Below are positions 25,836-43,120 of a stretch of 64,000 bases of DNA, in pieces; position 1 is the stretch's first letter; each line of letters begins with the position of its first letter. The translations under genes were made by a program, and so were the position numbers. Below the pieces are notes generated by a model that did not search any database, was not told the DNA's origin, and was given only the letters and a program-made list of their open reading frames with translations. This DNA comes from Candidatus Eiseniibacteriota bacterium (GTDB lineage: Bacteria; Eisenbacteria; RBG-16-71-46; CAIMUX01; VGJL01). The stretch spans positions 864,001 to 928,000 of the forward strand of contig CAWBWI010000003.1 of assembly GCA_963792585.1 (NCBI GenBank), read 5' to 3'.

Positions 25836-25844
25836 CGGCGGCGC

Positions 25845-26552: not shown

Positions 26553-26792
26553 CGATTCGGGACTCCCCGGGCCTTTTGCGTTGGCGGAATCGGAATCGGC
26601 GTGGATCTTGAAACTATTGCAATGGCAATGAGTTATGGGTTGGGCGAGGGCGTCTTCTCACTGCGGATCGAGACGCCACGCTCCTCACCCGGGGTGGTGG
26701 GCAGGGAGTTCAGAAACTCTTGCCGGTATGCACCGGCGGAACTTGCCGTTCGGTGGAGGGGCCGTCCGGCTCCCCCCACCAAACGAGGATGA

Positions 26793-28037
26793 CTAGCGGA
26801 GCAGTCCGACGACCTCGTTGAGCATCTCGTCGGCGGTCGCGACGATCCGCGCGCTCGCCTGGAAGCCCCGCTGGGTGATGATCATGTCGCTGAATTCCTG
26901 CGAGATGTCCACGTTCGAACCTTCGAGGGCCCCGGAGGCGATCGAGGATCCGGACCCGCCGATCGCGAAGCCGATCGTGGCGGGACCCGAGTCGGCCGAC
27001 TCGGCATAGAGGGCGTCGCCCGACCGGACCAAGCCGTCCGGGTTGTTGAACGCGGCCACGGCAATCTTACCGAATACCTGGGTAGCGCCGTTCGAGAAGG
27101 CGCCGGTGATCGAGCCGGTCGCGTCGATGCTGATGCCCGAGAGGGTCCCGGCCGTCCTGCCGTTCTGGCCCCGGGTCGAGGCGCTGGAGGCGCCCGCGAA
27201 GGAGGACAGGCCTGCGCCGTCCGTGGAGGCCTCGGCCAGGATGGACACGTTGATCGACCCCCCGCCCGCCGTGGGCAGGGTGAGGCCGGCCGCCCCGTCC
27301 GGGTGGGTGAAGGCCGTGAGCTTCCCGTCGGCGTCAAAGGTAGCCGTCCCATCGGCCGTGGCGGTGACGTCGGTGCCGTCGCACGACGCCTTCCATGTCC
27401 AGGAGCCGGGGCTCACGTTCGTGAAGGTGATCGACAGATCGTGCGCGGCCCCGCTCGCGTCGTAGGCGGTGCCACCGACGACCCGGGTCGTGCCGGCCGC
27501 GGCGGTGGCGTCCAAGTTGCCGCCGATCCGGATCTCACTCGTCGCGCGGGCTGCGGAGACCGCGTCGAGGGGGATCACCAAATCCCCGATCGTCGCGGCC
27601 GAACCCACGGTGCCGTCCGCCGCTGCGGCTGCGCCCTGCAGGACCGACCCGCCCCCCGGCAGGAGCAGGTGGCCCAGAGCGTCCAGCTGGAAGTCGCCGG
27701 CGCGCGTATAGGCGATGCGGTCGCCGTCACGCACGACGAAGAGTCCCCTCCCCTGAATGGCCAGGTCGAACGTACGCCCCGTGCTCTCGAGCGCTCCTTG
27801 CGTGAAGACCGACCCGATGCTCCCGATGCCGGCGCCGGTGCCGACCTCGAGCGCGCGGGGCGCGCCGCTGCCGGAGGTCGTCCCGGCCATCATCTTCTGC
27901 GCGAACGCTTCCTTGAAGGAGACCCTCGATGCCTTGAAGCCCAGGGTGTTCGCGTTGGCGATGTTGTCGCCGATCACATCCATTCGGACCTGGTGGCTGC
28001 GGAGTCCCGACAGTCCTGCGAGCAGGGCGCGCATCAT
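26793..28037 (-). CDS. flgE: flagellar hook protein FlgE
   Basis: MDVIGDNIANANT.GFK, TG..FDLAIQG.G.F, YTRAGDF, LEGSNVDISQEFSDMIITQRGFQASAR. Confidence 0.95.
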   Translation of the reverse strand: MMRALLAGLSGLRSHQVRMDVIGDNIANANTLGFKASRVSFKEAFAQKMMAGTTSGSGAPRALEVGTGAGIGSIGSVFTQGALESTGRTFDLAIQGRGLFVVRDGDRIAYTRAGDFQLDALGHLLLPGGGSVLQGAAAAADGTVGSAATIGDLVIPLDAVSAARATSEIRIGGNLDATAAAGTTRVVGGTAYDASGAAHDLSITFTNVSPGSWTWKASCDGTDVTATADGTATFDADGKLTAFTHPDGAAGLTLPTAGGGSINVSILAEASTDGAGLSSFAGASSASTRGQNGRTAGTLSGISIDATGSITGAFSNGATQVFGKIAVAAFNNPDGLVRSGDALYAESADSGPATIGFAIGGSGSSIASGALEGSNVDISQEFSDMIITQRGFQASARIVATADEMLNEVVGLLR

Positions 28038-28756
28038 GACTTCAACTCGCTTTCCAGGGGCAGGAACCCCTTCGCGGCAGCCAACGACTGAGGCGGATTG
28101 TTTGCCGGTCCGATCTCGACGACGTCATCCATCGAGATCTCCATGCCGTCGATCTCGAGGATGATCTCGCCGTCGCGGAAGAGGATCCCCGCGACGGTTC
28201 CCCGGGAGTAGGTCGTCACCTCGACCGACTCGCCGGCGGCGTCCTTGACCTCGAGCGAGTAGGTGTAGTTGCCGGCGGGCAGATCGTCGGGGAGCGTGAG
28301 CGTTTGCTTGCCGCCGTCCACGACCCCGAGATCGCGGGTCGCGACGACCCGTCCCGTGGAGTCCCGGAGGTTCAAGGTCGCGGTCCCGCCGCCCGCGCCC
28401 ACCTCGACCCGAATCGCCGCTTGTCCCGACGAGGGCACATGAACCTTGTCGCCGGTGGCGACCACACCCCTCCCGACGAGCGAAGAACTGAAGGCGGCCT
28501 TGGTCATGATCGTCGCCAGCTCGACGGACTGGGTCTGGATGGCGAGCTGATCGTTCAGCTGGGACAGTTGCTCGACGTTGGAGAAGGACGCGAGCTGCGC
28601 GGCAAACTCCTGCGGTTCGAGTGGATTGAGTGGATTTTGGTATCGCAATTGGGTCAGAAGTAGCTGCATAAACTCATTCTTACCCAAAGAAGTGCGACCG
28701 CTCGCCTCGGACGTCGAGGTTGTCGTCGAGCTGACCGTGTTGTTCGTGTCGATCAT
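28034..28756 (-). CDS. flgD: hook capping protein FlgD
   Basis: LGKNEFMQLLLTQLRYQNPLNP...FAAQLASFS.VEQL. Confidence 0.93.
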   Translation of the reverse strand: MIDTNNTVSSTTTSTSEASGRTSLGKNEFMQLLLTQLRYQNPLNPLEPQEFAAQLASFSNVEQLSQLNDQLAIQTQSVELATIMTKAAFSSSLVGRGVVATGDKVHVPSSGQAAIRVEVGAGGGTATLNLRDSTGRVVATRDLGVVDGGKQTLTLPDDLPAGNYTYSLEVKDAAGESVEVTTYSRGTVAGILFRDGEIILEIDGMEISMDDVVEIGPANNPPQSLAAAKGFLPLESELKS

Positions 28757-28771
28757 CGTCGGCCTTCCTTT

Positions 28772-29719
28772 CTAGGAAGCGAATCGCCCATCCCGGCGAC
28801 CCTCCTCGCGGGGGGCTGCCGATCGGCCTTGGGGTCCTTCTTCCGGAGTCCGATCGCCGGGACCCCGTCGAGAGGCCGGGGCGGAATCGGGCGGCTGCGC
28901 GTGGCGAACGGTCACGTTCGCCTCGACGAAACCCTGGGTGAGGAGGGAGCGGTGAAGGTCACCGAGATCGTTGTTCCAGCGACGAACCGCGTCCCGGTCG
29001 GAGGAGACGATCGTCGCGTGGAGCGCCTGACCGCGGACGGCGAGGCGCATCCTCCCCGAGACTCCGTCCTCTATCCCGAAGCGGACGGTGACCTGGGTCG
29101 CGGAGGGGTCCTTCGGGGCGGACGGCGTCTCGGCCGGAGCGTCACCCCCCGCGGTCTGCTCGGGGGCGTTCGCCTCGTCGATTTCCACACCACGCATCGG
29201 GCCGGACTCCGAGGTCGCCCGGACACCAACGGCCGTCGCGCCGGATCCATCGGCCGGGCCGGCCGGCCGGCCCGCGTTGGCTGCAACCCCACGGTCCGCG
29301 CCCTTCGATTCGATCCTCACGGCTTCGACCTTGAAACTCGCCGGCGGGTTCTCCGACCGGGTGTCCGGCCCCGCTGGCGGCTCGGGCCCAGGCGCGGGAG
29401 ACCCTTCGGCCGGTGGCTCGGGCAGCCCCCCGGACCCCTTTTCACCCGCATGGGTCGCGCGCGTCGCCCCGTTCGTTCCCTCCGCGGGGGGCGCGTCCGC
29501 GCCGGTCATTCGCCTCGGGGCGGCCTCCGCCTGCTCGCTCCCGTCGGAGGAGGGCTCGGCCACGGTCGGGCGCAACGGCGCATTCTCCGGCTTCGGGCCC
29601 GAAAGGGCCTGAGCGAGCGCGCGATCGAACGAGGTGCTTTCGATCTTCGGCCGCTTCGCAGTGCGGGTCGGCTGCGCCGGACGGCCGGTCTGCGGGCGTG
29701 GGGGCTCTACGCGGCTCAC
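28772..29719 (-). CDS. fliK: hook-length control protein FliK-like
   Basis: Pro/Ala-rich disordered N-terminus and a C-terminal T3S4-like segment (GRMRLAVRGQALHATIV...L..SL..QGF), directly upstream of flgD. Confidence 0.6.
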   Translation of the reverse strand: MSRVEPPRPQTGRPAQPTRTAKRPKIESTSFDRALAQALSGPKPENAPLRPTVAEPSSDGSEQAEAAPRRMTGADAPPAEGTNGATRATHAGEKGSGGLPEPPAEGSPAPGPEPPAGPDTRSENPPASFKVEAVRIESKGADRGVAANAGRPAGPADGSGATAVGVRATSESGPMRGVEIDEANAPEQTAGGDAPAETPSAPKDPSATQVTVRFGIEDGVSGRMRLAVRGQALHATIVSSDRDAVRRWNNDLGDLHRSLLTQGFVEANVTVRHAQPPDSAPASRRGPGDRTPEEGPQGRSAAPREEGRRDGRFAS

Positions 29720-30399
29720 GGTGTCTCCGATTCGGGGTCCTCGAGCAATCGTCGGCTCAGGGCGGCCGCCCGCTCGGGAGGAAGCTGCGCGAGGACGGTC
29801 GCGGCCGAACGGGCGCCCATCGCGACGATCAGCCGCTGCACCTGCTCATCGGGCAGGTCTTTGAGAACCTTTGCCGCATCCGCGGGCTTCATGTTCGTCA
29901 GGATCTTCGCGAGAAGCTTCAGCTCTTTTCCGTCCCGCGCCTTCGCGGTGCCCGAAGCGACCGCCGGCTGCGCGACCGGCGGGGCCGTTTTGATGGTCTC
30001 CTCGCTCCGGGCCGCGAGCTCGGGTTGCCCCGCGGGTGGGGTCTCCACCTTCACGGCGGCATCGGGTGCTTTCAACCCCTCCGGATTCATCGCCCCATCG
30101 GGCGCCTTCGACCCCTCCGGTTCCATCGCCCCGACGGGCGCTTTCGTCCCCTCCGGGTTCATCGCCCCATCGGGCACCCTCGCGGCGTCCTCGGGCTTCG
30201 ACCCCTCGGCGAGCATTGCCGCCGGGGATTCCGCGTGTCCTGAAGGGGTTTGGGTTGCCGGGGTCCCGGGGGCGCCCGCCGACTCCACCACCGGCGCGAC
30301 GACGGGTGGGAGAGGCGGCGCGGTGAGGACGCGAATCAACGTCGAGACCACCAGCGCCGCGACGAAACCGCCCGCGCCGAAGATGATCAGCTTCTTCAT
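29716..30399 (-). CDS. MotE/FlbB(YlxF)-like protein with N-terminal TM
   Basis: C-terminal LAKILTNMKPADAAKVL...MGARSAATVLAQLPPERAAAL. Located between fliJ and fliK. Confidence 0.7.
   Translation of the reverse strand: MKKLIIFGAGGFVAALVVSTLIRVLTAPPLPPVVAPVVESAGAPGTPATQTPSGHAESPAAMLAEGSKPEDAARVPDGAMNPEGTKAPVGAMEPEGSKAPDGAMNPEGLKAPDAAVKVETPPAGQPELAARSEETIKTAPPVAQPAVASGTAKARDGKELKLLAKILTNMKPADAAKVLKDLPDEQVQRLIVAMGARSAATVLAQLPPERAAALSRRLLEDPESETP
30061..30174 (-). repeat. 36-bp (12-aa) in-frame tandem repeat, about 3 copies
   Basis: PDGAMNPEGTKA / PVGAMEPEGSKA / PDGAMNPEGLKA. Confidence 0.85.
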
Positions 30400-30845
30400 C
30401 GGTTCCCTCCGACGGCTCTCCGGTGGTGGGAGATGGCGTCGAGCTGGCTCTGCTCGAGCCTCGAGCTCTCCACGGACCACTCTTCATGCCGTTTCTCGCG
30501 AAGCCGTTCGACGACGCGACGATCCTTGCGCGCCTCGTGGAACATCTCCTGCTCCACCCGGACGACCTCCTCCGCGCTCTGGTGCGACGTCTCGGCCACC
30601 TCGACCTCTCCGGCCGCGGCATTGATCGTCAGGCCGAGATTCTGCATCGTGCCCGCGGTCGTGACGATCGCGCCTGCGCCCGCGATCTGCAGGGCGCAAC
30701 GGTCGAGCCGCGCCTCGGCCTCCTCGAGCGACCGCCGCCGCACGATTTCCGCGAGCATCGCGTCCCGAAGCAGACGGGCCCGCTCCTTCTCGGTCTTGGC
30801 GCGGAGATCGAGGATCCGATCGAGACGGAACTGGAATCCCTTCAT
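30396..30845 (-). CDS. fliJ: flagellar export chaperone FliJ
   Basis: MKGFQFRLDRILDLR...E; ARKDRRVVERLREK; EQSQLD. Confidence 0.9.
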   Translation of the reverse strand: MKGFQFRLDRILDLRAKTEKERARLLRDAMLAEIVRRRSLEEAEARLDRCALQIAGAGAIVTTAGTMQNLGLTINAAAGEVEVAETSHQSAEEVVRVEQEMFHEARKDRRVVERLREKRHEEWSVESSRLEQSQLDAISHHRRAVGGNR

Positions 30846-32213
30846 GCTGCGACTCCCTGGAGGTGTGCCCGGATCCGATCGGCGAGGGTGAGGACCTGCT
30901 TCTGGATTTCGTCCTGCTTCGGAAGATCACCGGCCGACTGGCAGAGGAACGCGCGGATCGGCTCGCGCAACGCGATCGCCGCGTCAACTTGCGGATCGGC
31001 TCCGGTGCGGTACGCGCCGACGGCGATCAGGTCCTCGTGAGCGTGATAGGCGGCCTCGACGCGCAGCACGATGTCCGCAGCCTCGAGCATTTCGGGGGAG
31101 ACCACCGCGTCCCGAACACGGCTCACGCTCTGGAGGACGTCGATCGCCGGGAAGTGCTTCACATTCGCGAGATGGCGGGAAAGGACGATGTGCCCGTCCA
31201 GGATCGAGCGGGTCGCATCGGCCACCGGTTCGTTGAAATCGTCCCCCTCGACGAGGACCGTGTAGAGGCCGGTGATGCTCCCGACCCGGGCCGTTCCCGC
31301 CCGCTCGAGCAGGCGCGGAAGGGCCGCGAATACCGAAGGCGGGTATCCCTTGGTGGTGGGCGGCTCGCCCACGGCGAGTCCGATCTCGCGCCACGCCATG
31401 GCGACGCGGGTGATCGAGTCCATCATGAGGAGAACGTTGCGCCCGGTGTCGCGGAAGTGCTCGGCGATCGTGGTCGCTACGAGCGCGCCGGTCGCACGGA
31501 CCACGGCCGCCTGGTCGCTCGTTGCGACGACCACGACCGAGCGGCGCAGTCCCTCGGGTCCGAGGTCTCGCTCGATGAACTCTCGGACCTCGCGGCCTCG
31601 CTCTCCGAGCAGCGCGATCACGTTGACGTCGGCGGTCGTGTTGCGCGCGATCATTCCGAGCAAGCACGCTCTTGCCGACGCCGCTGCCAGCCATGATGCC
31701 GATCCGTTGTCCTTGGCCGAGCGTGATGAGCCCGTCGATCGCGCGCACGCCGGTCCCGATCGGGTCGCGGATCCGCGCCCGCTCGAGCGGGTTCGGAAGG
31801 ACGCCGGTGAGAGGGCGGCGTCGCGTGAAGCGGAAGGGGCGCCCGTTGTCGATGGGCTTGCCCAGGCCGCTCAGCACGCGGCCGATCAACTCCTCTCCCG
31901 CCTTCGCGTAGAAGGGACGGTCCATCGGGATCACGACCGCGCCGGGACGGACCCCCTCGATATCCCCCAGCGGCATCAAGAGCACGCCGCGCTCGTGGAA
32001 GCCGACCGTCTGCGCGAGGATCCCCGTCCGATCATCCGGCGCGATGCGGCAGACCTCGCCCACGGCGATCGGCATCGAAGAGACTTCCACGACGGAACCG
32101 ATGACCCGTGTGACCCTGCCGCAGATCGCGAATCGGGGGAGGGCTTCGACGCGGCCGACGGCTTCGTCGACCCATCCGACCGATGGCGCGTCACTCGACA
32201 TGAAGACGCTCAT
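30842..32213 (-). CDS. fliI: flagellar export ATPase FliI (one frameshift near 31665)
   Basis: GQRIGIMAGSGVGKS Walker A, GERGREV, DSITR, GEPPTTKGYPPS, ILDGHIVLSR. Confidence 0.95.
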
Positions 32214-32868
32214 AGAGGTTCTGGAGGGCCACGTCGAGGCGGCCGTCCACGATCCTGAGGGGGCTCTCGAGGAGGAAGCTCCCCGGCCCGATCGCCGGGT
32301 CCGAGACCCATTCGACCGCCGACTTGCGCCCCTGCCCGTGGAGCCTCTCGAGATCCGCGGCGAAGGAGTCGAAGTCCGCGGGGCTCAGTCGGACTTCGAA
32401 CGGGGTATCGAGCGGCATGAGGTTGAGCGCCTGCTCGACGAGGGACCGGGCCACGGAGGGATCGGTCGCCATCTCCTTCTGAACGAGCTTTCGCGCGACG
32501 GCGACGGCAATCGCGTAGACGCATCTAGCGTGGTCGGGACCGAGTTCCTTGCGGGCGAGTTCGAGCGCGTCGATCGCTTGCTCGAGCGCCGTCACGAGCG
32601 GCTGCAATTGCTCCCGCGCTTTCGCACGGCCGTCCAGAAGGCCGTCCGCGTATCCGTTGCGGTAGCGCTCGTCGGTTTTCGGATCGGGTGGTGGGGGCAG
32701 GCCGTAGCGAGCGGGCGCCCCCGGCAGGCCGCCGAGATCAGGCAGGATCAAACCGCCGTCGGCCGCGGCCGATGGGAGGGGCACCCCGCGGGCGGCGCCC
32801 GCGGGATCGATCTCTCCCAGGTCGGGCAGGGACCAGGCGTCCGACGACTCAGACAATGATCGCATCAT
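32191..32868 (-). CDS. fliH: flagellar assembly protein FliH
   Basis: GYADGLLDG GxxxG repeats, VARKLV..E, DPAIGPG...ESP..IVDGRL. Confidence 0.85.
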   Translation of the reverse strand: MMRSLSESSDAWSLPDLGEIDPAGAARGVPLPSAAADGGLILPDLGGLPGAPARYGLPPPPDPKTDERYRNGYADGLLDGRAKAREQLQPLVTALEQAIDALELARKELGPDHARCVYAIAVAVARKLVQKEMATDPSVARSLVEQALNLMPLDTPFEVRLSPADFDSFAADLERLHGQGRKSAVEWVSDPAIGPGSFLLESPLRIVDGRLDVALQNLYERLHVE

Positions 32869-33880
32869 CTCCGCCTTCGCGACGGATCAAGATCTCGCCT
32901 GCCTGCTCGAGGAGCCGCGCCGTTTCGGTGATGCGCGCGTGCGCGCCCTCGACATCCTTCACACGCACGGCGCCGAGGAGCTCGATCTCCTCCTCGAGGG
33001 CGGCGGCCGCGCGCTCCGACATGTTCGACTTGATGTGACGCTTCAGCTCCTCGCTGGCCGCCTTCAGCGCCAGGGCGAGTTCCTTCGTCTCGATCTCACG
33101 GAGGATCTGCTGGATTCCCTTACCGTCGATCAGAAGGAGGTCCTCGAAGACGAACATCAAAGCGCGAACCTGCGTGGCCAGCTCGGCACTGCGCCCCGTC
33201 AGCATCTTGAGCAGATGCTCCTGGAGCGTGCTCGTCGTCTGGTTGAGGATCTTCGCGACCGCGAGGGGACCTCCGCTGACGGTCATCTCCTGCGTGAGTT
33301 GAAGCTCCGCGCGGTTGTCCAGCCCGGCCGACACCAGTTCGAGGACGTCGGGGGAGACCTTCTCCATCCGCCCGAGCCTGAAGAGCAGCTCCGCGACCAG
33401 TTCCTGATCCATTTCCCCGAGGATGGCCGAAGCCTGCGCCATATCGAGGTGGGACAGGATCAGCGAACTCGTCTGTGGATGCTCGTTACGCAGAATCCCC
33501 GCGAGAACTTCGGGCGCCGACTTGCGAAGCTTGACCAGCCCGCTGTCGATTCTCTGGAGCTGCACCTTCTCCAGGATCACTCCCCCGCGTGCCGCGCCCA
33601 GGGCTTGCTCGAGAATCTGCTGCGCATAGACCACGCCGCCGGAGGCAACCGAAGCCGAGCTGCGCGCGGTGTCCTGGAATTCGAGGAGCACCGACCGCGC
33701 GACGTCGGGCGGCACGGCGGGCATCGAGACGACCTCGCGCGCGACCAGTTCGACTTCCTCGGGCTGCATGTGCTTCAGGATCTTTCCGGCCTCTTTCGCG
33801 CCGATCGCCATGCAGAGGATCGCGCACTTCTGCGCCCCGGTGAGCGACTCCTTCGTCATCATGGTTCCGGCCGGGGGCAT
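32849..33880 (-). CDS. fliG: flagellar motor switch protein FliG
   Basis: TGAQKCAIL, EHPQT, GG hinge, MFVFEDL, NMSERAA. Confidence 0.96.
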   Translation of the reverse strand: MPPAGTMMTKESLTGAQKCAILCMAIGAKEAGKILKHMQPEEVELVAREVVSMPAVPPDVARSVLLEFQDTARSSASVASGGVVYAQQILEQALGAARGGVILEKVQLQRIDSGLVKLRKSAPEVLAGILRNEHPQTSSLILSHLDMAQASAILGEMDQELVAELLFRLGRMEKVSPDVLELVSAGLDNRAELQLTQEMTVSGGPLAVAKILNQTTSTLQEHLLKMLTGRSAELATQVRALMFVFEDLLLIDGKGIQQILREIETKELALALKAASEELKRHIKSNMSERAAAALEEEIELLGAVRVKDVEGAHARITETARLLEQAGEILIRREGGDDAIIV

Positions 33881-35385
33881 CAGGCGGACCTCGTCAGCCA
33901 GTCACGCAGGACCTGCGCGGTCTGTTCAGGGCGCATGTTCGCATCGATCGTGATCGGCGGTGGCGGCGGGGGTGGCGGTGGCGCCTCCACCGGCGCCGGA
34001 CCGGAGACGGCGGTCATCTGCGCGGACCGCGGGGAATCCTGTGAGAACAGGGAAGCGGAAATGGGGGCCGCACCGCCGACGGGGGTTTTCAGCGCCCGCA
34101 GGGCGAGGATCAACAGGGCCACGACGGCGATCACGCCGACCACGATGCGGCCCACCCGCTCGACGATGTACATGATGTCGGGCTTCGGCTTGCCCGCGGT
34201 GGGATTCTCCCCGGTTTCCTCGACCAGTGGTGTCACCGCCTCGAACGGAACGGCGAGCACGCTCAAACGATCACCCCGCGTGCTGTCGGCGCCGATCGCA
34301 TTCCAAACCATCGCGCGGACGCGGGTGAGATCTATCGGCCCGGAGGTTCCTTCGCCTCCGGAGACCGACTTCTCGTCGATCAGAATCGCGGCGGCCAGCC
34401 GCGTGACCCTGCCCACGGAGCCCACGCTCTTCTCGACCCTCCGCGATGTCTGGTAGTTGTTGTTGATGACCACCTGGCCGCCCGTCTCGCCGGCGGCGCC
34501 CGGCTCGGTTTCGCTCCGCTGCTCGGAGGAGAGGACCTGGGTGTCCGGATCGAAGGTCTCGACCGTCCGGTCGATCTGTTCGAAGTCGAGGGTGGCGGAG
34601 ATCTGCGCGCGCGCTCGCCCGAGCCCGACGACCGGCTCGAGCAGGTCGACGACCTTTGCGCCGAGGTTCTGTTCGATAGACCTCTGGATATCCAGTTGCC
34701 AGCTCGTCATTCCCGCCATCGAGCCGCTTCCCGCGGGCACGGAGAGCACGCGTCCGGTGTCGTCCATGACGGCGATGTTGTCGCTCGAGAGCCGCTCGAC
34801 GCTGTTGCTGACGATGAAGGTGATTCCCTGGATCGTCTCCCGCGAGAGGTTTACCCCCGCGCCGAGGGTCAGAACCACGGATGCGCTCGCCGCCCGATCG
34901 AGTTTCCGCAGGGGACTGGCGGTCGGCAGAGCGAGGTGCACCTGCGCCCTCTCGACGCCGTGGATGCCCTGGATCGTTCGCGCCAGTTCACCCTCGAGGG
35001 CGCGCTGGTAAGTGATCCGCTGGGTGAACTCGGTCATGCCCCAGGACGGCTTGTCGAACAGCTCGAGACCGGGCCGCCCGTTGCTCGGCAGTCCGTCCTT
35101 CGCGAGCGCGACGCGCGCGCGCGCGAGCTCTTCCACCGGCACCTGAATCTCGCTGCCGCCCGCGCCGAGGCGGTGAGGGATGCCGGCCTTCGTCAGGCGT
35201 TGATCGACGACACCCGCCTGGCTCAGGTCCATGTCCCGCACGAGGGAGACGTAGTTCGGGGTGGAAGCCCAGCGGCTTACGCCCCAAACGCCGAGCGCGA
35301 CGACGGCCGCCACGGCGATCATGACGAAACGGCGAGAAGCGCCTCCTGGCGCAGCCGGAAACAACGCTAAGGGTGTTCGACTCAT
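33880..35385 (-). CDS. fliF: MS-ring protein FliF
   Basis: GLELFDK..WGMTEF...YQRALEGELARTI, ASASV, two TMs. Confidence 0.95.
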   Translation of the reverse strand: MSRTPLALFPAAPGGASRRFVMIAVAAVVALGVWGVSRWASTPNYVSLVRDMDLSQAGVVDQRLTKAGIPHRLGAGGSEIQVPVEELARARVALAKDGLPSNGRPGLELFDKPSWGMTEFTQRITYQRALEGELARTIQGIHGVERAQVHLALPTASPLRKLDRAASASVVLTLGAGVNLSRETIQGITFIVSNSVERLSSDNIAVMDDTGRVLSVPAGSGSMAGMTSWQLDIQRSIEQNLGAKVVDLLEPVVGLGRARAQISATLDFEQIDRTVETFDPDTQVLSSEQRSETEPGAAGETGGQVVINNNYQTSRRVEKSVGSVGRVTRLAAAILIDEKSVSGGEGTSGPIDLTRVRAMVWNAIGADSTRGDRLSVLAVPFEAVTPLVEETGENPTAGKPKPDIMYIVERVGRIVVGVIAVVALLILALRALKTPVGGAAPISASLFSQDSPRSAQMTAVSGPAPVEAPPPPPPPPPITIDANMRPEQTAQVLRDWLTRSA

Positions 35386-35408
35386 GATCCCCTGTCGTCA
35401 GGCGCCGA

Positions 35409-35708
35409 TCACTGGACGTTCATCACGGACCGGTACGCCTCGGTCAGTTTGTTTCGGATTTCCACCAGCAGTTCGAGAGAGATCGAAGCTTCCTCGCTGG
35501 CTGCCATCACCTGGTGCAGTTCTACCGGTTCGCCCCGCAGGAACGCCTGGATCAGATCGCCCGCGTTCTTCTGTAGGTCGGACGCGTCGCCGAGGGCGCT
35601 CTTGAAGAGGTCGCCGAAGGACGGCGCGTCCTGCGAGGGCGCGAAGATCTGCTCGGGCGCCTCATAGGGGCGCAGCGTCGGGCCGTCGATTCGAATCGGT
35701 GAGGTCAT
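35409..35708 (-). CDS. fliE: hook-basal body protein FliE
   Basis: LHQVMAA.EEASISLEL.VEIRNKL.EAYR.VMN.Q. Confidence 0.95.
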   Translation of the reverse strand: MTSPIRIDGPTLRPYEAPEQIFAPSQDAPSFGDLFKSALGDASDLQKNAGDLIQAFLRGEPVELHQVMAASEEASISLELLVEIRNKLTEAYRSVMNVQ

Positions 35709-35712
35709 GGCA

Positions 35713-35988
35713 TCAACCCCGCACGTCGAGTCGCCGGCCGGTCGGCGCGTCCACGGGTTCCCGGTCCGCTCCCCCTTCGCGGTAGGTCAGAGGTCCGAGC
35801 GCCATCTGCTGCTCGAAGAAGGCCCTCTCCTCGGGTGTGAGGATTTCGATGAGGGAGGACTCCGCGCCGGCGGGCTCGCTTGCGACCTCGGAAGCCCCGG
35901 ATATCTTGCGATACTCGGCGGCAGCCTGCGCGGCGGCTTGCGGAATCCGCACGGGCGACGGAGGGAATGCGGAGACGTTCATCGACAC
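35713..35988 (-). CDS. small hypothetical protein between flgC and fliE
   Basis: Fills the gap with 9- and 4-nt spacers; GGAG RBS; motifs ILTPEERAFF and GRRLDVRG. Confidence 0.65.
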   Translation of the reverse strand: MSMNVSAFPPSPVRIPQAAAQAAAEYRKISGASEVASEPAGAESSLIEILTPEERAFFEQQMALGPLTYREGGADREPVDAPTGRRLDVRG

Positions 35989-35997
35989 CGGTTGCTC

Positions 35998-36423
35998 CTA
36001 GATCTCCAGAGCACGTCGCAGCATGCTCTTGGCTGCCTGAAAGACGGTGGCGTTCGCTTCGTGGATCCGGCGGGCGATCATCAGGTCGACGATCTCTGTG
36101 TTGGTGTCCACGTTCGGATACTCGACGAAGCCCTCGGCGTTGGCGTCGGGATGGCCGGGGTCGTAGACGAGGCGCCCGGAGTTCGGATCGGAGACGACGC
36201 GGGTCTCCATGTCGCCGGCGCGCGTGCCGCCCTCTACGACCGCGATCTGACGTCGATACGCGCCGCCCTCGGTCGTGCGGGTCGTCTGTGCGTTCGCGAT
36301 GTTCGCGGCGATGATCTCCAGGAATTTCTGCTGCACGGCCATGCCTTCCGCGCTTGTCGCCAGCGAAGGCATCAACGCGCGGACCCTTCGTCCGACCGCG
36401 GAGGTGACGAGGGGATCAGCCAC
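35998..36423 (-). CDS. flgC: proximal rod protein FlgC
   Basis: IAANIANAQTT, YDPGHPDAN.EG.V.YPNV, EAN. Confidence 0.95.
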   Translation of the reverse strand: MADPLVTSAVGRRVRALMPSLATSAEGMAVQQKFLEIIAANIANAQTTRTTEGGAYRRQIAVVEGGTRAGDMETRVVSDPNSGRLVYDPGHPDANAEGFVEYPNVDTNTEIVDLMIARRIHEANATVFQAAKSMLRRALEI

Positions 36424-36712
36424 GTTCGCGCAGAGCCGCCCGGAGCCCCGCGTAGGCTCCCTGGAGCAACTTCGCCTCCGCCTCGTAGCGGATCTCGGTG
36501 TCCGCCAGGGCCGTCATGTCACGCTGGAGGTTGGCCTCCTGCGAGGCCTTGGCCTGCTTCGCCTTCAGCGTGTCCTCGAAGCTCATCCGGCTGCTCGAGG
36601 TCGCCGCGCCCGCCACGCGGGCGGCGATCGCGCGATGCGCGGCCATCGCGTCCTCGAGACCACCGCGCAGGGCGCTCGTGATCGACGAGGAACCGAATAG
36701 ACCTTTGATCAT
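36416..36712 (-). CDS. flgB: proximal rod protein FlgB (short, divergent)
   Basis: HRAIAARVAGA, NLQRDMTALADTEIRY. First gene before flgC; GGGAGG RBS. Confidence 0.75.
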   Translation of the reverse strand: MIKGLFGSSSITSALRGGLEDAMAAHRAIAARVAGAATSSSRMSFEDTLKAKQAKASQEANLQRDMTALADTEIRYEAEAKLLQGAYAGLRAALRERG

Positions 36713-36749
36713 GCGTCCTCCCTTGGGCCCACGAACCCGCCGCCTTGCA

Positions 36750-36765
36750 AGCAACTTCCATACCA
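36750..36765 (-). promoter_or_regulatory. sigma54 -24/-12 promoter of the flgB operon
   Basis: Minus strand TGGTAT-GGAAG-TTGCT. Confidence 0.8.
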
Positions 36766-36948
36766 CACTCTCGTGGACCGCAACGGACCAGCCTCCTGCT
36801 GCCGGAGGACCAAGATTGAAGCCGAGTTACGGGACGCGACGGTGGAGTGGTCGGCGGGACGGCTCCTGCGATGGAGGGGGCGAAGAGGAAGGAACTGCCG
36901 GTCGGCGTCGGTCACACCTGCCGGACCGGGGGCCGTATCGAGAAATGC

Positions 36949-37491
36949 CTAGGCGGCCTTCCGCTCCTCATCGACAGGGGGGGAGGCCTCCGTTTTCGGG
37001 GCGGATTCAGGGGCCGATTGTGCGGGCGCACCGGAAGCCGAGTCGCCAATCATCCGCTCGCCTGGAGTCGGGAGGGCGGAGGCAAGCCGCTCCTCTCGCC
37101 CGGTGACCGCGGCGCCCTCCGGAGAAGCCGCCGCGCGGCTCAGACGTTCGATCTTGATGCGGAGTTGCTCGGCCACGAAGGGCTTCAACATGTACTCCGA
37201 GACCCCCGCCTGACGGGCCGCGATGACGTCGTCCTTCGAGTTGCGGTCCGTCACCATCAGGATCGGGATGTCGGCGGTGTCCGGGTTCGCCCGTAACTGC
37301 TTGGCCAGCTCGACCCCATCGACGCCGTCTGCAGTCCAGGAAGTGATCAGCAGCGACACGCTCGGGTCACAGGCTTCGAGCGCCTGCTTCCCGTCAGGGG
37401 CGTCGACGATGTCTTCGATTCCAAAGCGGTGGAGGGTGTTGCGGAGGATTCGGCGCATCGAGGCGGACGGATCGGCGATGACACAGCGCAT
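36949..37491 (-). CDS. CheY-like receiver protein lacking the phosphoacceptor Asp, with low-complexity C-terminal tail
   Basis: CheY-like SMRRILRNTL, IPILMVT and YMLKPF, but LLITSW where LIITDW is expected. Confidence 0.8.
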   Translation of the reverse strand: MRCVIADPSASMRRILRNTLHRFGIEDIVDAPDGKQALEACDPSVSLLITSWTADGVDGVELAKQLRANPDTADIPILMVTDRNSKDDVIAARQAGVSEYMLKPFVAEQLRIKIERLSRAAASPEGAAVTGREERLASALPTPGERMIGDSASGAPAQSAPESAPKTEASPPVDEERKAA

Positions 37492-37497
37492 GGACGG

Positions 37498-37824
37498 CTA
37501 CTCGGAATGCGTTTCCAGATCAACCACCAGGCGGCGGAGAACCTCGCCTCGGACCTCCGGGCGCCGGTAAAATCCCTGTGCGATTCGATCGAGAATCTCT
37601 CGCTGCCGCTCCTGCGTGAGTCCCGGCTCGCCGGCGTCGATCGGCTCGATCGATGCGCTGAACTCCCTCGCCGCCTCTGAGATCTCGACCGCATCCTTCT
37701 GCGCCCCTACCGGTTGCGCGTCTCGACGCTCCGGCGGCCGCGCGATCGGCTCGGGGGCGGTCCGGCGAAGCCGGCCGGCACCGGGCCGCGAGGTCGGATC
37801 GGGCTGGGTCGGGTTTACGTTCAT
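37498..37824 (-). CDS. flgM: anti-sigma28 factor FlgM-like
   Basis: KDAVEISEAAR and REILDRIAQGFY motifs; preceded by a sigma28 promoter. Confidence 0.65.
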   Translation of the reverse strand: MNVNPTQPDPTSRPGAGRLRRTAPEPIARPPERRDAQPVGAQKDAVEISEAAREFSASIEPIDAGEPGLTQERQREILDRIAQGFYRRPEVRGEVLRRLVVDLETHSE

Positions 37825-37923
37825 CGGTCCTCTCCCGGCGTCGCCATGCGACGCTCCAGGCGTTTCGTTGAGGCCGCTGCCGATGCCTTCCTGGCCTCGT
37901 GCGCATGGTCGGCCCCACTCGTA

Positions 37924-37950
37924 TTCTCGGTCCCCCGAAGGGAAACTTTA
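37924..37950 (-). promoter_or_regulatory. sigma28-type promoter for the flgM-like/cheY-like genes
   Basis: Minus strand TAAAGTTT-N11-ACCGAGAA. Confidence 0.7.
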
Positions 37951-38033
37951 GGCCCGCGCGCGGATGCGTCGATCGAACCCCGCCCACGGGATCGCCCGGG
38001 AAGGATCGCCGCTCCCGGGCTGGGGAAAAGCGC

Positions 38034-38411
38034 TCATGCCGGCGAGGAGGCCAATCCCGCGGCGATGTGGCGGTTGATGTCGATCAGGGCCTGGATCTTG
38101 GAGGACACCGGCTCCGCCAGCACCTCAAACGTCCGCTGGTCCACGAAGGCGCTCAGTTTCAGAAGGTCCAGGCGAAGATCGGCCGGCAACTCGTGATTCT
38201 CCTGCGCCAGCTCGGACTGAAACAGCGTCCAGAGGTGCAGGTTCGAGCGAAGCGCCGCGACCAGGTGCTCGCTCCGGACGGGGTCGGCCCCGGCGTCCCG
38301 ATACGTCTCCAGCATCCGCGCGATCTTGAATAGCGCGCCAGCTTCGAGCTTGCGATTCGAGTCGGTCGCCTTGCCGTTGGACTCATAGACCTGTTGTGCG
38401 TTCGTGTACAT
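38034..38411 (-). CDS. flaF: flagellar biosynthesis regulator FlaF
   Basis: RKLEAGAL..IAR.L, AL..N..LWT.F..EL....ELP..LR..LL.LS.FV, LIDINR.IA.GL. Confidence 0.88.
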   Translation of the reverse strand: MYTNAQQVYESNGKATDSNRKLEAGALFKIARMLETYRDAGADPVRSEHLVAALRSNLHLWTLFQSELAQENHELPADLRLDLLKLSAFVDQRTFEVLAEPVSSKIQALIDINRHIAAGLASSPA

Positions 38412-38790
38412 GCGTCAGCAACTCCCTTTCGTGCGCCAGGAGAGCCCGGGCGACCTTGATGGCGTGGTACAGCTTGCCGGCCACCGCGAGAGAGTCGATT
38501 TCTTCCGCAAGTGGCCGGCAGCTGGGTGCAACCTGGAGCAGTTCCTCGATGAGCCCGCGGCACGTGGTCAGGTGCTGTTGAGCCCGCTCGGGGTCGACGT
38601 ACATGAGTTGTAGAGCCAAGTAGATCCGCTCGGATGGCGTCCGAACCATGCTGGGACTCAAGATGTCGGATTCGCGCAGAACGGGAACTTCGTTTTCGAT
38701 GCGAAGCTCGGTGCGACTGTCCCCGTTCCGAATCACTGCGCCACTGATGATGACGCGCTCGTTCGGTTTCAACGTCAATTGGAGCGCCAT
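38383..38790 (-). CDS. flbT: flagellin post-transcriptional regulator FlbT
   Basis: MALQLTLKPNERVIISGAVIRNGD, VLRESDIL, TP..RIY..LQLMY, Y.A.K.AR.L..HE. Confidence 0.9.
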   Translation of the reverse strand: MALQLTLKPNERVIISGAVIRNGDSRTELRIENEVPVLRESDILSPSMVRTPSERIYLALQLMYVDPERAQQHLTTCRGLIEELLQVAPSCRPLAEEIDSLAVAGKLYHAIKVARALLAHERELLTHVHERTTGL

Positions 38791-38925
38791 TGGGATCCTC
38801 CGCGTCTCTACTTCCTCAGGCCCCGGGTGGGGCCACGTCCGTGGGGTCCGCTCCCGCGTCGGCCGCGGACCCGCCCGGGGCCGACAGGCTAGGCGCCTGC
38901 CGGCTCTCCGGTGTGTCCGCTCCGA

Positions 38926-39738
38926 TTAGAAAAGCTTCAGGATGCTTTGCTGGGTCTGCGACGTGAGCGACAGCGCGGTGATACCGAGCTGCTGCCTGGT
39001 CTGGAGCGCCAGCAGGTTTGCGCCCTCCTCATTCTGGTCTGCGGCCGTCAAGAGGTCGGCGCCGCCGGTCAGAGTGTTGATGAGGTTGACGGTGAACTCC
39101 TGGCGCGTGGTCACGACGCTCAGGTTCGCGGCCAAGCTCTTGGCGTTGGTCCGAAGCGTCACGAGGGCCGCGTCCAGGTCGGTCGTGGCCGCGTCGATGT
39201 CGGTGTCCGCAGCCCAGGCGTTCGCGGCGCCGGAGATGGACAGACCGGTCGACGTGCCGTCGAAACCGGTGATAGTCAGGGTCGAGGTGCCGTCCTCGTT
39301 GAACGTCACCGTCAGCGTGTCGCTGTCCAGCAGGTTGCGGCCACGATAGATCGCGTCTCCGGCCAGCTCGTCGATCTGGGTGAGCAATTCGTCGTACTGG
39401 GTCGAGAGAGCGGTCCGCTCGGCCGACGTCCCGCCACGGGCGGACTCGGCGATACCCTTCGCCTGCTGAATCAAACTCGTGATGGCGTCGATACCTTCCG
39501 TCGCCGTCCTCACCGTCTGGATCGCCTCGGCCATCATGTCCTTGCGCGCGGCAAGGTCGCTGGCCCGGCTCATGTGGTTCTGGGCGGCGAAGTAAGCGGA
39601 CGGGTCGTCGACCGCGCTGTTGACGCGCTTGCCGGTCGACAAGCGCTCCGTCGTCCTTGCCTGGAGGGCGGCGAACATCTGCAGGCTCGTGAGAGCCGAA
39701 CGCATCCCGCCGGCCAAGGTGATGTCATTGATCGACAT
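38926..39738 (-). CDS. fliC: flagellin, 270 aa, alphaproteobacterial-type termini
   Basis: ITLAGGMRSAL.SLQ...ERLSTGKRVNSAVDDPSAYFAA; ADQNEEGANLLALQTRQQLGITALSL..QQSILKLF. Confidence 0.93.
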   Translation of the reverse strand: MSINDITLAGGMRSALTSLQMFAALQARTTERLSTGKRVNSAVDDPSAYFAAQNHMSRASDLAARKDMMAEAIQTVRTATEGIDAITSLIQQAKGIAESARGGTSAERTALSTQYDELLTQIDELAGDAIYRGRNLLDSDTLTVTFNEDGTSTLTITGFDGTSTGLSISGAANAWAADTDIDAATTDLDAALVTLRTNAKSLAANLSVVTTRQEFTVNLINTLTGGADLLTAADQNEEGANLLALQTRQQLGITALSLTSQTQQSILKLF

Positions 39739-39819
39739 GGCTTGATACCCCTTTCTGGGTGTCCCGATGTCCATCCCGGGCATTCTGCCCGGGCGCCGAC
39801 CGTGCGCCGGCTTCGGAAA

Positions 39820-39846
39820 GTCTCGGAGGGACCCGACAGGACTTGA
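39820..39846 (-). promoter_or_regulatory. sigma28-type promoter for flagellin-flbT-flaF
   Basis: Minus strand TCAA-N15-TCCGAGAC. Confidence 0.6.
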
Positions 39847-39880
39847 GAGGGGTCCGCCGAGTTTTCGAGGTTCATCCGGC

Positions 39881-39907
39881 TAAAGTGCAGCGGCAAAGAG
39901 TCGATAC
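39881..39907 (+). promoter_or_regulatory. sigma28-type promoter for flgL
   Basis: TAAA-N15-GTCGATAC. Confidence 0.7.
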
Positions 39908-39941
39908 GCTCATAGGAGACCAAGGGATAGGAGGGAGCCGA

Positions 39942-40805
39942 GTGCGGATCACCAACCAGATGATGCTCCAGAACGCGATGCGGGGGTTGAGGTTCAATCT
40001 GGAGGCGATGGCCCGAGCTCAGCAGGAGAGCCTCACGGGCCGCCGCGTCACGCGGGTCTCCGATGACCCCCAGAGCGCGGCGAAGATGCTGCAAGTGGGT
40101 GCGGAACTCAGCGATATCGATCAATATCATCGGAATGGGGTGACGGCGGGGGTGCGGTTGACGACCGAGGACACGGTCCTGACGACGATCAACGACCTGG
40201 TGACCCGTGCCAAGGCCCTGGGGATCGATGCGATGGCGGTCGATCCCGACGGGCCGGTCAACCTCGCGACGCTGGACGAACTGGCCGACATTCGCGAGCA
40301 GATCATCTCGCTCGGCAACACGAAGGTCGGCAACGAGTACATCTTCGGCGGCGGTCAGACGTCGACGCCTCCATTCGACAACGAAGGAAACTACCTCGGC
40401 GATGCCGACACGCGACGCGTGGAGATCGACCAAGGCATCACCACCGAGACGAACCACACGGGCGATCCGCTTTTCACCGACGTTCTGGAAGGCCTCGACG
40501 AGCTGGTCTCGTCCCTGATGACGGGAAGGAGTGAGCCGGTCGAGGCCGCTGTCAGCAAGCTCGACCGCGCGAGAATCCAGATCGGGGTGGCGCAGGCGGA
40601 GGCCGGCAACCGGCAGCAGACGATCAATGACGTCTCGATGCGGATGACGAAACGGACGGCCGACCTGCTCGACCAGATGAGCAGTCTGCGCGACGTCGAT
40701 CCGACCGAGGCGGCCGTCAATGCGGTCGCGGCCCAGGCGGCGCTCGAGCGCGCATATTCCGTTGTCGGAAAGACGCTCTCGACGGATATTTTGAAGTATC
40801 TTTGA
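39942..40805 (+). CDS. flgL: hook-associated protein FlgL
   Basis: (V)RITNQMM...TGRRVTRVSDDP, YIFGG..T...PF, LRDVD..EA, S.DILKYL. GGAGG RBS with GTG start. Confidence 0.9.
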   Translation: MRITNQMMLQNAMRGLRFNLEAMARAQQESLTGRRVTRVSDDPQSAAKMLQVGAELSDIDQYHRNGVTAGVRLTTEDTVLTTINDLVTRAKALGIDAMAVDPDGPVNLATLDELADIREQIISLGNTKVGNEYIFGGGQTSTPPFDNEGNYLGDADTRRVEIDQGITTETNHTGDPLFTDVLEGLDELVSSLMTGRSEPVEAAVSKLDRARIQIGVAQAEAGNRQQTINDVSMRMTKRTADLLDQMSSLRDVDPTEAAVNAVAAQAALERAYSVVGKTLSTDILKYL

Positions 40806-40872
40806 TCGGACCTGTGCTTGGCCGTATTGCGGTCCGCCCGCGGATGGCGGGGAAAAGGGGCTAGGAAGACCC

Positions 40873-42240
40873 ATGCCGACGATTCTCTGTATTGACGAAG
40901 AGCCCGCGACCGGTGTGATGCTCGAGGACGCCCTGGGCCGCATCGGCCATCAGGCCATCGTCGCATCCAGCTTCAAGGAGGGGTTGAGCGCTCTCAACCG
41001 GGAGCCGATCGACCTCATCATCTCCGACCACCGCGTGTCGGACGGCTCGGGACGCGACCTGCTCGACCACCTCCGCGAAGAGGGGCACGACATCCCGGTC
41101 ATCATCACGACCGGGTACGCCAGCGTGGAAAGCGCGGTTCTCTCCATGCGCCGCGGGGCGGCCGACTATCTTACGAAGCCCTTCCGCTTCGAGGCGCTTC
41201 GGATCGCGGTCAACAACGCCCTCGAGGTCTGCAAACTGCGCCGCGACAACGAGGGCTTCCAGAAGGAGATCAGCTTCCGGCGGGCGATCGTCGGCCAGAG
41301 CAACCGCGTGCGGTCGCTCATGGAGACGATCGCCGCAGTGGCCCCGACGCGGGCGACGGTCCTCCTCGAAGGCGAGTCGGGGACCGGCAAGGAACTGCTC
41401 GCGCGGGCGATCCACGAGCAGAGCCCTCGATCCGCTCAGCCCTATGTCACGATCAATTGCGCCGCCCTTCCGGAAGGACTGGTCGAGAGCACTCTTTTCG
41501 GCCACGAGCGGGGATCGTTCACCGGCGCCACCACGCGTTCGATCGGCGCCTTCGAGCGGGCCCATCGCGGCACGCTCGTCCTCGACGAAATATCCGAGAT
41601 GCGACTCGACTTGCAGGCGAAGCTGTTGCGGGTCGTGCAGGAACAGGAGTTCGAGCGGGTAGGCGGCGGGCAGCGGGTGAAAGTCGATGTGAGGCTGATC
41701 GCCACGACGAACCGCAACCTCGAGGAAGAGGTCGAGGCGGGACGCTTCCGGCGGGACCTCTACTATCGTCTGAGCGTCGTTCCGATCCGTACCCCCCCGC
41801 TGCGGGAGAGGCTCGAGGACGTGCCGCTGCTCGTGCAACATTTCGTGGATCAGTACGCGAAGGAGTTGGGGCTGAAGAAGCCCGAAATCCTCCCCGAAGC
41901 GATCGGGCAGCTGATGCAACGCTCCTGGCCCGGAAACATCCGGGAGCTGGAGAACGCGATCGGGCGCGCCATGATATTGAGCCGCGACAACCGCCTCACG
42001 TCCGCTTCGTTCGACGGGGCGGGGATCGGATCGGTTCCGGGTTCGGCGGCATCCGGCGAGGCTCCGTTGTCCAGGAGCCCGAAGACCCTCAATCTGAAGG
42101 TGCTCGAGAAGGCCGTGATCGAGATGGCGCTCGCGCAGACCGGGGGACACCGAGTCCGGGCTGCCCAGCTTCTCGGCATCAGCGAGCGAACGCTGCGCAA
42201 CAAACTCAATGGGCGCAACGGCGATGGCGAAGGCGTTTGA
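40873..42240 (+). CDS. sigma54-dependent response regulator (REC-AAA+-HTH; FlrC/FleR/FlbD-like)
   Basis: REC domain with Asp (LIISDH), GESGTGKEL, GSFTGA, LDEI, FRRDLYYRL, WPGNIRELEN, Fis-type HTH. Confidence 0.93.
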   Translation: MPTILCIDEEPATGVMLEDALGRIGHQAIVASSFKEGLSALNREPIDLIISDHRVSDGSGRDLLDHLREEGHDIPVIITTGYASVESAVLSMRRGAADYLTKPFRFEALRIAVNNALEVCKLRRDNEGFQKEISFRRAIVGQSNRVRSLMETIAAVAPTRATVLLEGESGTGKELLARAIHEQSPRSAQPYVTINCAALPEGLVESTLFGHERGSFTGATTRSIGAFERAHRGTLVLDEISEMRLDLQAKLLRVVQEQEFERVGGGQRVKVDVRLIATTNRNLEEEVEAGRFRRDLYYRLSVVPIRTPPLRERLEDVPLLVQHFVDQYAKELGLKKPEILPEAIGQLMQRSWPGNIRELENAIGRAMILSRDNRLTSASFDGAGIGSVPGSAASGEAPLSRSPKTLNLKVLEKAVIEMALAQTGGHRVRAAQLLGISERTLRNKLNGRNGDGEGV

Positions 42241-43120
42241 ATTTCGTCTGACCAGGACAGCCCGCCAGGAACCGGGGTTGCTAGCGATCCTCCTGAGGAC
42301 GATCGAGGAGGCCGGCCGGCTTCCGATGTCCGCTTGGCGCCTGGTCCACGCGGTCGAGGATGCTCGAGACTCGGCCGATAGCGTGGCCGAGATCCTGGAA
42401 GACGATCTCCTCGTCTCGAGGCGCGTCATGCGTCTGGCCAACGGAGCGCAGCACGCGCAGCTCGGCCCCGTGGGCAGCCTGAACGAAGCCGTCTACCGGC
42501 TCGGCTCGACCACGATCCTGAACATGGCCTTCACCGACCACCTTCGGAAGCTCCAGGAATCAGCGACGATCTACCGGATCTCCAGTGCCGACATCGGACG
42601 GCACGGGGACGCGACCGGCGTCGTGGCGAGCATGATCGCACGTTACGTGCCCGACGTTGGAATCTCTCGCACCGTGGGCGTGGCCGGAATGATGCACGAC
42701 GTCGGCAAGGTGATGATCGCGCGGTGCATGGAGACCGCCGGCCCGGGCCGGCTGAAGGAGTTGGGGACGCCCGCGCCCCTATTCGCGGACATCGAGCGGG
42801 ACGTCGTCGGCCTCGATCATGCGGAGGCCGGCGCGCTGCTCGCACGCCGCTGGGGATTGCCCGGCGTGATCGCGATCGCGATCCAGGATCATCATCGGCT
42901 CGGCAGCGAGAACCGTGACCCGACCGCCGTCGCCGTGGCGCTCGCGAACGTCATCGCCAAGAGCATCGGTTTCGGCCCGCCGCCGGACGGGCGCGAGGTG
43001 CGACGGTGCCTGGTGTTGCAGAAGCAGATCGGGCTCGACCGCGACGATTTCTACCGGATCCGCGCCGACGCATCCAGACGCCTGCACGTGAGCCGCGGAG
43101 GCGCCGACCGCCCCGCGTAG
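42224..43120 (+). CDS. HDOD domain protein
   Basis: D..VS.RVMRLAN, SLNEAVYRLG, GMMHDVGK, DHAEAGALLARRWGLP, HH. Confidence 0.88.
   Translation: MAKAFEFRLTRTARQEPGLLAILLRTIEEAGRLPMSAWRLVHAVEDARDSADSVAEILEDDLLVSRRVMRLANGAQHAQLGPVGSLNEAVYRLGSTTILNMAFTDHLRKLQESATIYRISSADIGRHGDATGVVASMIARYVPDVGISRTVGVAGMMHDVGKVMIARCMETAGPGRLKELGTPAPLFADIERDVVGLDHAEAGALLARRWGLPGVIAIAIQDHHRLGSENRDPTAVAVALANVIAKSIGFGPPPDGREVRRCLVLQKQIGLDRDDFYRIRADASRRLHVSRGGADRPA

Follow-up and report, generated by a model that had tools for sequence, protein, structure and literature searches.

The flagellar gene cluster analyzed here combines two ways of controlling flagellin: a flagellin-flbT-flaF cassette and a cluster-encoded sigma28 factor (FliA) with a FlgM-like gene. 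FlbT and FlaF are usually taken as the alphaproteobacterial alternative to sigma28/FlgM and FliD/FliS, but here both occur in one cluster, and this FlaF-type cluster was found in five families of the phylum. The window under study is a stretch of 64,000 nt from a Candidatus Eiseniibacteriota bacterium (G000:C3:864001-928000); the genome, G000, comprises 5.4 Mb in 7 contigs and is 84% complete. The hybrid is real and conserved, a variant put together from parts that were already known. As judged from gene order and phylogenetic trees, the replacement of the filament genes is also real, and it belongs to the history of the chassis, i.e., the surrounding flagellar cluster, and not to the native flagellum of the host.

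Flagellin, flbT, flaF, and an open reading frame (ORF) of 108 aa succeed one another on the minus strand (Table 1). A first-pass annotation had described a 270-aa Caulobacter-like flagellin followed by flbT and flaF, and this was confirmed: the flagellin matched Flagellin_N and the solved Flj structures, FlbT and FlaF exceeded the Pfam cut-offs, and FlaF also exceeded the NCBIfam equivalog cut-off. The fliA gene was verified by its family model, and the statement that the cluster contains none of fliD, fliS, fliW, and csrA was borne out. The 108-aa ORF is tentatively FlgM-like, judged from ESM Atlas clusters and synteny, without a hidden Markov model match. FlgM was found on 20–73% of the members of its nearest Atlas clusters (score 0.94), which are commonest in Gemmatimonadota, and 28 C-terminal residues resemble a FlgM-like protein on contig C4. 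Eisenbacteria accounted for 9 of the 11 organism-named flagellin matches, which spoke for a host of this phylum and not of Gemmatimonadota, and a relative in the host's family has a flagellin identical to one named Eisenbacteria. The flbT gene was kept beside the flagellin gene in nearly all loci inspected. Some relatives have two near-identical flagellin copies. A single-sequence structure model of the flagellin was poor (predicted local distance difference test (pLDDT) 50) and was set aside. In one relative (L255:1996-6245), a gene resembling a tetratricopeptide repeat (TPR)-glycosyltransferase and a HAD-like gene lie between flagellin and flaF, which may point to FlmG-like glycosylation of its flagellin.

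The chassis is related to FliG proteins named Gemmatimonadota, and its identity to the native system found in the host's order is only 25–50%. Scanning metagenomes for FliG relatives yielded 80 loci, of which 32 extend at least 4.5 kb upstream of fliG; about one third end before the filament slot. In this slot, next to flgL, loci of the same chassis carry either fliW and/or fliC-fliD (L225, L226, L232, L249, L264, L268, L296, L297, and others) or flagellin-flbT-flaF-flgM (L235, L236, L240, L255). Inspection of the ORFs of L249 revealed the order flgL-fliW-fliC-fliD-fliS. A tree of concatenated FliG, FliF, FlgC, and FliE was calculated with 34 rows, excluding loci that nearly duplicate others and the majority of those whose state is unknown. 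The 11 FlaF-type rows formed one clade (100/100) inside two layers with FliW/FliD-type rows (100/100 each), and the six native rows lay outside. Joining the FlaF-type rows with the native rows was rejected by the approximately unbiased (AU) test (p 8e-38). The idea of an in-place replacement thus held, because the same chassis has fliW-fliC-fliD-fliS in that slot elsewhere and the FlaF-type clusters are nested among these loci.

The native flagellar locus has the order flgK-flgL-fliW-csrA-fliC-fliD-fliS-flgM-like-pilZ-kinase-regulator, followed by a basal-body block that ends with flhG-fliA. A remnant was found on contig C4 of the host genome (G000:C4:68605-75952; L001:2606-10070), consisting of fliW-csrA-flgM-like-pilZ-kinase-regulator-flhG-fliA, in which the regulator is of the sigma54 type and the flhG product is FlhG-like. 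It equals the native order minus the structural blocks, and the same is seen in two non-flagellated members of the family (G013 and G135). The three other families of the host's order are among the FliD-type genomes, and in the RpoB tree, the host's family stands beside FliD-type families (100/99); the host's own branch is long because its rpoB is frameshifted. The FliA tree placed the C4 FliA with native FliA (100/98) and the window FliA with cluster-type FliA (100/99), and the two proteins are 34% identical. Therefore, the sigma28 factor of the cluster arrived with the cluster. The first-pass annotation had assumed control by the host's sigma28, which had to be abandoned, as the FliA, motor, and hook genes of the cluster fall outside the native set in the FliA tree, the chassis tree, and the AU test, and the native FliA is encoded on C4. 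A FliA-like sigma factor is present in 186 of the 201 genomes of the phylum, most of them without flagella, and thus, another job of this factor is likely.

In the 84%-complete genome as a whole, no match was obtained for FliD_N, FliD_C, and FliS, and a single flagellin was found in addition to FlgL. The view that the fliC-fliD-fliS set has been lost was therefore sustained as far as FliD, FliS, and a second flagellin are concerned, but FliW and CsrA are present on C4, and one FlaF-type relative, G123, has FliS. Among the 201 genomes, 37 contain FlaF and 30 contain FliD_C, with no overlap. The 65 genomes with FlgK divide into 32 with FlaF, 30 with FliD, and 3 with neither, and FliS accompanies FliD except in G123. 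A third, divergent FliD-type system was observed in G152 (L107, L180).

The predicted sigma28-type promoter noted upstream of the flagellin gene exceeds chance, as its site recurs at a fixed distance. The motif T[CA]AA-N16-C[CG]GA precedes 16 of 22 distinct related flagellin genes, 15 times at 102–110 nt and once at 128 nt, compared with a mean of 0.22 and a maximum of 1 in shuffled sequence. The same type of site occurs upstream of 8 of 17 flgM-like genes (shuffle mean 0.08) and 2 of 7 flgL genes, and it was found upstream of none of 28 flbT and none of 30 flaF genes; duplicates and rows with less than 115 nt upstream had been removed before counting. Sites resembling −24/−12 elements precede flgB, fliL, and flgF in the cluster, which contains a sigma54 activator gene; these sites were listed with no chance control. 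Two more high-scoring sigma28-type sites lie on the minus strand at G000:C3:1099384 and C3:1149809, with no ORF called downstream. In three metatranscriptomes, the region is covered by RNA contigs from a related strain; one is equivalent to 38497-39804 and ends near the predicted start, and contigs of the other two runs span that point. They were not counted toward the start site because a start cannot be read from contigs.

An alignment was made of 30 flagellin leaders, downstream of the −10 box. They share two GC hairpins, of which the second has an AGAA loop, and CCC-NAGAAA-GGG over the ribosome site; this third hairpin pairs the Shine-Dalgarno motif in 26–28 of the 30 leaders. In the alignment, 84.8% of the cells were paired, and 6 of 13 pairs had two-sided changes (0 of 500 shuffles). 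A model built from the leaders recovered the held-out leaders of G143 with 61.8 and 27.7 bits; it had no match in alphaproteobacterial or native leaders, and in G000, only its own site was strong. An Rfam search of window positions 37000-41000 gave no meaningful match. Four alphaproteobacterial leaders share only the third hairpin, as CCTAG(A/G)AAAGG at the ribosome site. The native flagellin leaders of 16 loci have a different hairpin, GGGT-AYGGAW-ACCC with an ANGGA loop, which we take to be of the CsrA type and which is absent from G000.

Table 1. Features of the hybrid flagellar cluster (positions in the window)
Feature	Position	Strand	Basis
Flagellin, 270 aa, FlaF-associated (Caulobacter-like) family	38926..39738	-	Flagellin_N 54 bits; Caulobacter Flj flagellins best PDB matches, E 2e-21
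flbT, predicted translational regulator of flagellin	38383..38790	-	Pfam FlbT PF07378 130.9 bits (cut-off 27)
flaF, predicted flagellin secretion chaperone	38034..38411	-	Pfam FlaF PF07309 100.5 bits (cut-off 23.6); NF009435 106 bits (cut-off 91)
FlgM-like ORF, 108 aa, predicted anti-sigma28	37498..37824	-	Atlas FlgM clusters; synteny, 3′ of flaF in relatives
Flagellin 5′ leader, three conserved hairpins, third pairs Shine-Dalgarno; candidate FlbT target	39739..39812	-	Leader alignment; folding z -4.1
Sigma28-type promoter of flagellin (TCAAG...CCGAGACT; TCAAG...CCGAGA)	39819..39846	-	Position conserved, 16/22 flagellins; leader alignment
Sigma28-type promoter of flgM-like gene (TAAAG...CCGAGA)	37923..37950	-	Site search upstream of relatives' genes; genome-wide promoter matrix
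Sigma28-type promoter of flgL, back to back with flagellin promoter	39881..39906	+	Site search
Cluster-encoded FliA (sigma28)	16516..17280	-	TIGR02479 217 bits (cut-off 189.6); NF005413 204 bits (cut-off 201)
flgL, chassis gene at one edge of filament slot	39942..40805	+	TIGR02550 175.9 bits (cut-off 127.2)
Sigma54-dependent response regulator	40873..42240	+	Family scan of cluster proteins
CheY-like receiver protein	36949..37491	-	Downstream of flgM; synteny in several FlaF-type clusters
Chassis: the entire flagellar cluster, motAB to flgL plus regulators	7089..43120	.	

Taken together, the flagellar cluster of the window is likely a second one that is not native to the host; flagellin-flbT-flaF fills the slot that holds fliW-fliC-fliD-fliS in related clusters, and regulation probably proceeds in three tiers. 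A sigma54 activator would switch on the genes of the basal body; after export of FlgM, the flagellin gene would be transcribed by the FliA of the cluster; and FlbT would block translation from the structured leader until FlaF hands the flagellin over for export, provided that FlgM, FlbT, and FlaF act as in their model systems. We infer one replacement in the history of the chassis, after which the finished hybrid cluster would have spread among those lineages of Eisenbacteria from which the native flagellum had disappeared. FlbT is described as a translational repressor that is relieved by FlaF-driven export in PMC7591256 and PMC9812332, and because of this description, the simplest reading is that FlaF would replace FliS in function and FlbT the translational checkpoint of FliW-CsrA. 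The two hook-completion checkpoints suggested by the first-pass annotation may be stacked, by analogy to the model systems; with FlbT in place of FliW-CsrA, the second would be an exchange of translational controls and not an extra layer. As there is a single flagellin gene, the same flagellin would have to serve as filament subunit and as FlbT co-repressor.

Several observations weigh against this reading. At the level of the genes, FlbT stays below both NCBIfam equivalog cut-offs, the FlgM-like ORF has no match in Pfam or NCBIfam, and the −10 box of the flagellin promoter is degenerate (CCGAnnCT, compared with CCGATA at flgM). Slid leader controls had 26–56% of the cells paired, below 84.8%, yet two-sided changes similar in number, and therefore, the leader structure is likely, but the covariation is modest. 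The pair counts were drawn from related sequences, RNAalifold retained only 3 pairs with the plain, unrefined alignment, and only 16 of the 30 leaders fold with a z score below −2. One of the 37 FlaF genomes, G123, has a canonical FliS (G123:C292) in addition to FlaF, and at 84% completeness, a fliD gene could be on a lost contig of G000, yet FliD was found in none of the 37 FlaF genomes. In the tree of cluster-type FliA, the sequences group by family, a pattern that repeated transfer and an ancient acquisition followed by differential loss would explain equally well. Only a small number of proteins carry the name Gemmatimonadota, and no taxonomy is attached to the metagenome loci of FliD type. 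Repression in Caulobacter needs FljJ and Brucella FlbT activates, and G000 has one flagellin.

The last point leads to the rather doubtful alternative that FlbT and FlaF act only as activator and chaperone, that hook completion is sensed by FlgM alone, and that the hairpins stabilise the transcript and are no repressor site. The reported activation by Brucella FlbT (PMC9812332) agrees with it, as does the requirement for the special paralog FljJ in Caulobacter (PMC7591256), given the one flagellin of G000. The location of the Shine-Dalgarno motif within the third hairpin and the conserved position of flbT beside the flagellin gene argue for the repressor function of FlbT instead. A different history, which we regard as somewhat unlikely, would have the same hybrid and the same mechanism: an ancestor of the class held two systems, the native flagellum of FliD type plus the hybrid cluster, of which each lineage lost one or both, so that later transfers would be unneeded. 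The grouping of cluster-type FliA by family (f1; f6+f16; f5+f14), the GC content of the cluster, which matches that of the genome, and the distribution over five families would all fit. However, none of the 201 genomes has both systems, the flagellin and chassis trees differ in the placement of f1, and in the RpoB tree, every FlaF-type family stands beside a sister with FliD or FliW (f1/f3, f6/f7, f5/f9), so that many parallel losses would be needed. The absence of a dual genome favours spread among Eisenbacteria lineages over inheritance beside a native system, and the family-wise grouping of FliA allows inheritance. That the cluster is decaying or mis-binned and the combination is non-functional is hardly credible. 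Many of its basal-body genes are frameshifted, and in G088 (L086), a member of the same family, only fliA-flhG-regulator-flaF-flgM are left, but rpoB has the same kind of frameshifts, which indicates read errors, probably of long reads. In addition, relatives sequenced with short reads have open frames and the same gene order, and the 1.33 Mb contig of the cluster also holds this rpoB.

The first-pass annotation had proposed that a filament module from Alphaproteobacteria was taken up into the flagellar system of the host and placed under its native sigma28, which is quite improbable. Among solved structures and NCBIfam models, the flagellin is matched best by alphaproteobacterial entries, the order flagellin-flbT-flaF is shared with alphaproteobacterial loci, and the ribosome-site hairpin is found in four leaders of this class, but both chassis and FliA are non-native. 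Furthermore, in a quick flagellin tree with mostly unnamed rows and open deep forks, the Eisenbacterial flagellins formed one clade (100) outside the clade with six named alphaproteobacterial rows (96), at the same level as a group of low support that includes Desulfuromonadales, Hydrogenophilales, and Smithellaceae proteins; names were obtained for 3 of the 20 clusters of flagellin relatives. FlaF is named in five non-alphaproteobacterial groups (Thiobacillaceae, Gallionellaceae, Gammaproteobacteria, Geobacterales, and Thermodesulfovibrionales). The window FlaF is 38–47% identical to FlaF named Pseudomonadota, Gallionellaceae, Thiobacillaceae, Thermodesulfovibrionales, and Geobacterales, compared with 37–41% to alphaproteobacterial loci. 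An alphaproteobacterial donor was thus not shown by the flagellin tree and the FlaF names; the label "alpha-type" appears fair for the cassette, and the donor need not be alphaproteobacterial. Plasmid searches yielded only Azospirillum FlaF and distant FliG. The proteobacterium G202 (L033:8547-10321, L185) has a FlaF-type flagellin, flaF, a flhA-flhF-fliA-motAB block of beta-type order, and no FliD match, and an unassigned 167-aa ORF stands in the place of flbT. By its gene content, G202 is a second, independent hybrid on another chassis.

The filament module had also been called cap-independent, which is too strong because FlaY is named as a FliD analogue in Caulobacter in PMC13277936 and bioRxiv 2024.09.25.614892. 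In the window cluster, no ORF was found that lacks an assignment and is unique to FlaF-type clusters. Among the 19 genome-wide matches to a promoter matrix derived from the relatives, the top site precedes the gene for a 396-aa protein (G000:C3:1305646-1306833; L300:7644-8834). The protein is 33% identical over its full length, and 45% in its C-terminal part, to the product of the gene directly upstream of the G202 flagellin (L033). It was found in 18 of 37 FlaF genomes, in none of the 30 FliD genomes, and in 3 of 134 others, and the promoter precedes 16 of 19 full-length copies (shuffle 0.28). The structure model (pLDDT 85) comprises TPR repeats and a beta-rich C-terminal domain (beta-sandwich), which has no Pfam match; fold searches with the whole protein matched the TPR part only. 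The protein was rejected as an obligatory cap because it is missing from 19 of the 37 FlaF genomes; a profile recheck of 17 of these 19, with at most 67 candidates scored in each, found none. It is probably a late flagellar accessory of the cassette. A more far-reaching reading, which we consider unlikely, is that flagellin-FlbT-FlaF is a portable cassette: in several phyla, it would have taken the place of fliC-fliD-fliS in sigma28 flagella, and its filaments would polymerise without FliD or FlaY, uncapped or aided by the TPR protein. The TPR protein would then define a third class of factors for filament assembly.

Within one chassis, the arrangements from before and after the swap can both be seen; the filament moved together with its chaperone and translational control, onto a hook junction foreign to them. 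This suggests that the filament part of a flagellum is exchangeable as one unit and can be assembled in the absence of the standard cap. The conserved leader offers a handle on the FlbT recognition element, the one-flagellin system a way to ask whether FljJ-like co-repression requires a paralog, and the FliD-less filaments without known cap a third testable handle. No paper on FlaF or FlbT in Eisenbacteria or Gemmatimonadota was found in the literature outside subscription journals; databases already name FlaF in several non-alphaproteobacterial groups. Elsewhere in the window, a small ORF between flgC and fliE (35709-36000), which ends with ...LGPLTY...RRLDVRG, is kept in both FlaF- and FliD-type clusters of the chassis, and a long ORF (46825-49500) has a weak HNH-like match far under the cut-off (IscB model, residues 786-838).

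To our knowledge, Caulobacter crescentus has neither FliA nor FlgM, and as a control, the FlgM profile gave no match in Caulobacter; in contrast, the G000 cluster has FliA, a FlgM-like gene, and a sigma28-type flagellin promoter. The Caulobacter FlbT/FlaF/FljJ system (PMC7591256, PMC9812332) resembles that of G000 in the flagellin family, the position of flbT-flaF beside the flagellin gene, and a structured leader over the ribosome site, and no FliD or FliS was found in either. It differs in having six flagellins, whereas G000 has one and no separate FljJ-like regulatory paralog in its genome, and in the quick tree, the G000 flagellin lies outside the alphaproteobacterial clade. No FlaY candidate was noticed in the G000 cluster, with no search aimed at FlaY made.

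The chassis resembles the cluster of Gemmatimonas aurantiaca, and relatives of the window's FliG and FlgM are named Gemmatimonadota. According to Table S1 of PMC13277936, the flagellar accessions of G. aurantiaca run in the gene order of the window, an order inferred from the accessions, and the two share FliA, FlgM, and a sigma54 regulator. The G. aurantiaca filament slot, in contrast, contains FliW, FliC, FliD, FliS, and FliT, and the table lists no FlaF or FlbT for it. FliD is also found in many Gemmatimonadota metagenome-assembled genomes (supplement of PMC10581226). In Table S1, there is no Eisenbacteria row; 12 of its 251 rows were compared, and other rows with FlaF and FliA are possible. 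In Bacillus subtilis, FliW-CsrA-Hag under SigD/FlgM (PMC13443453) is likewise a translational flagellin checkpoint atop sigma28/FlgM, and the native Eisenbacteria locus has FliW-CsrA genes as B. subtilis does. In G000, fliW-csrA lies apart from any flagellin gene, and the job of FliW-CsrA would be done by FlbT and FlaF.

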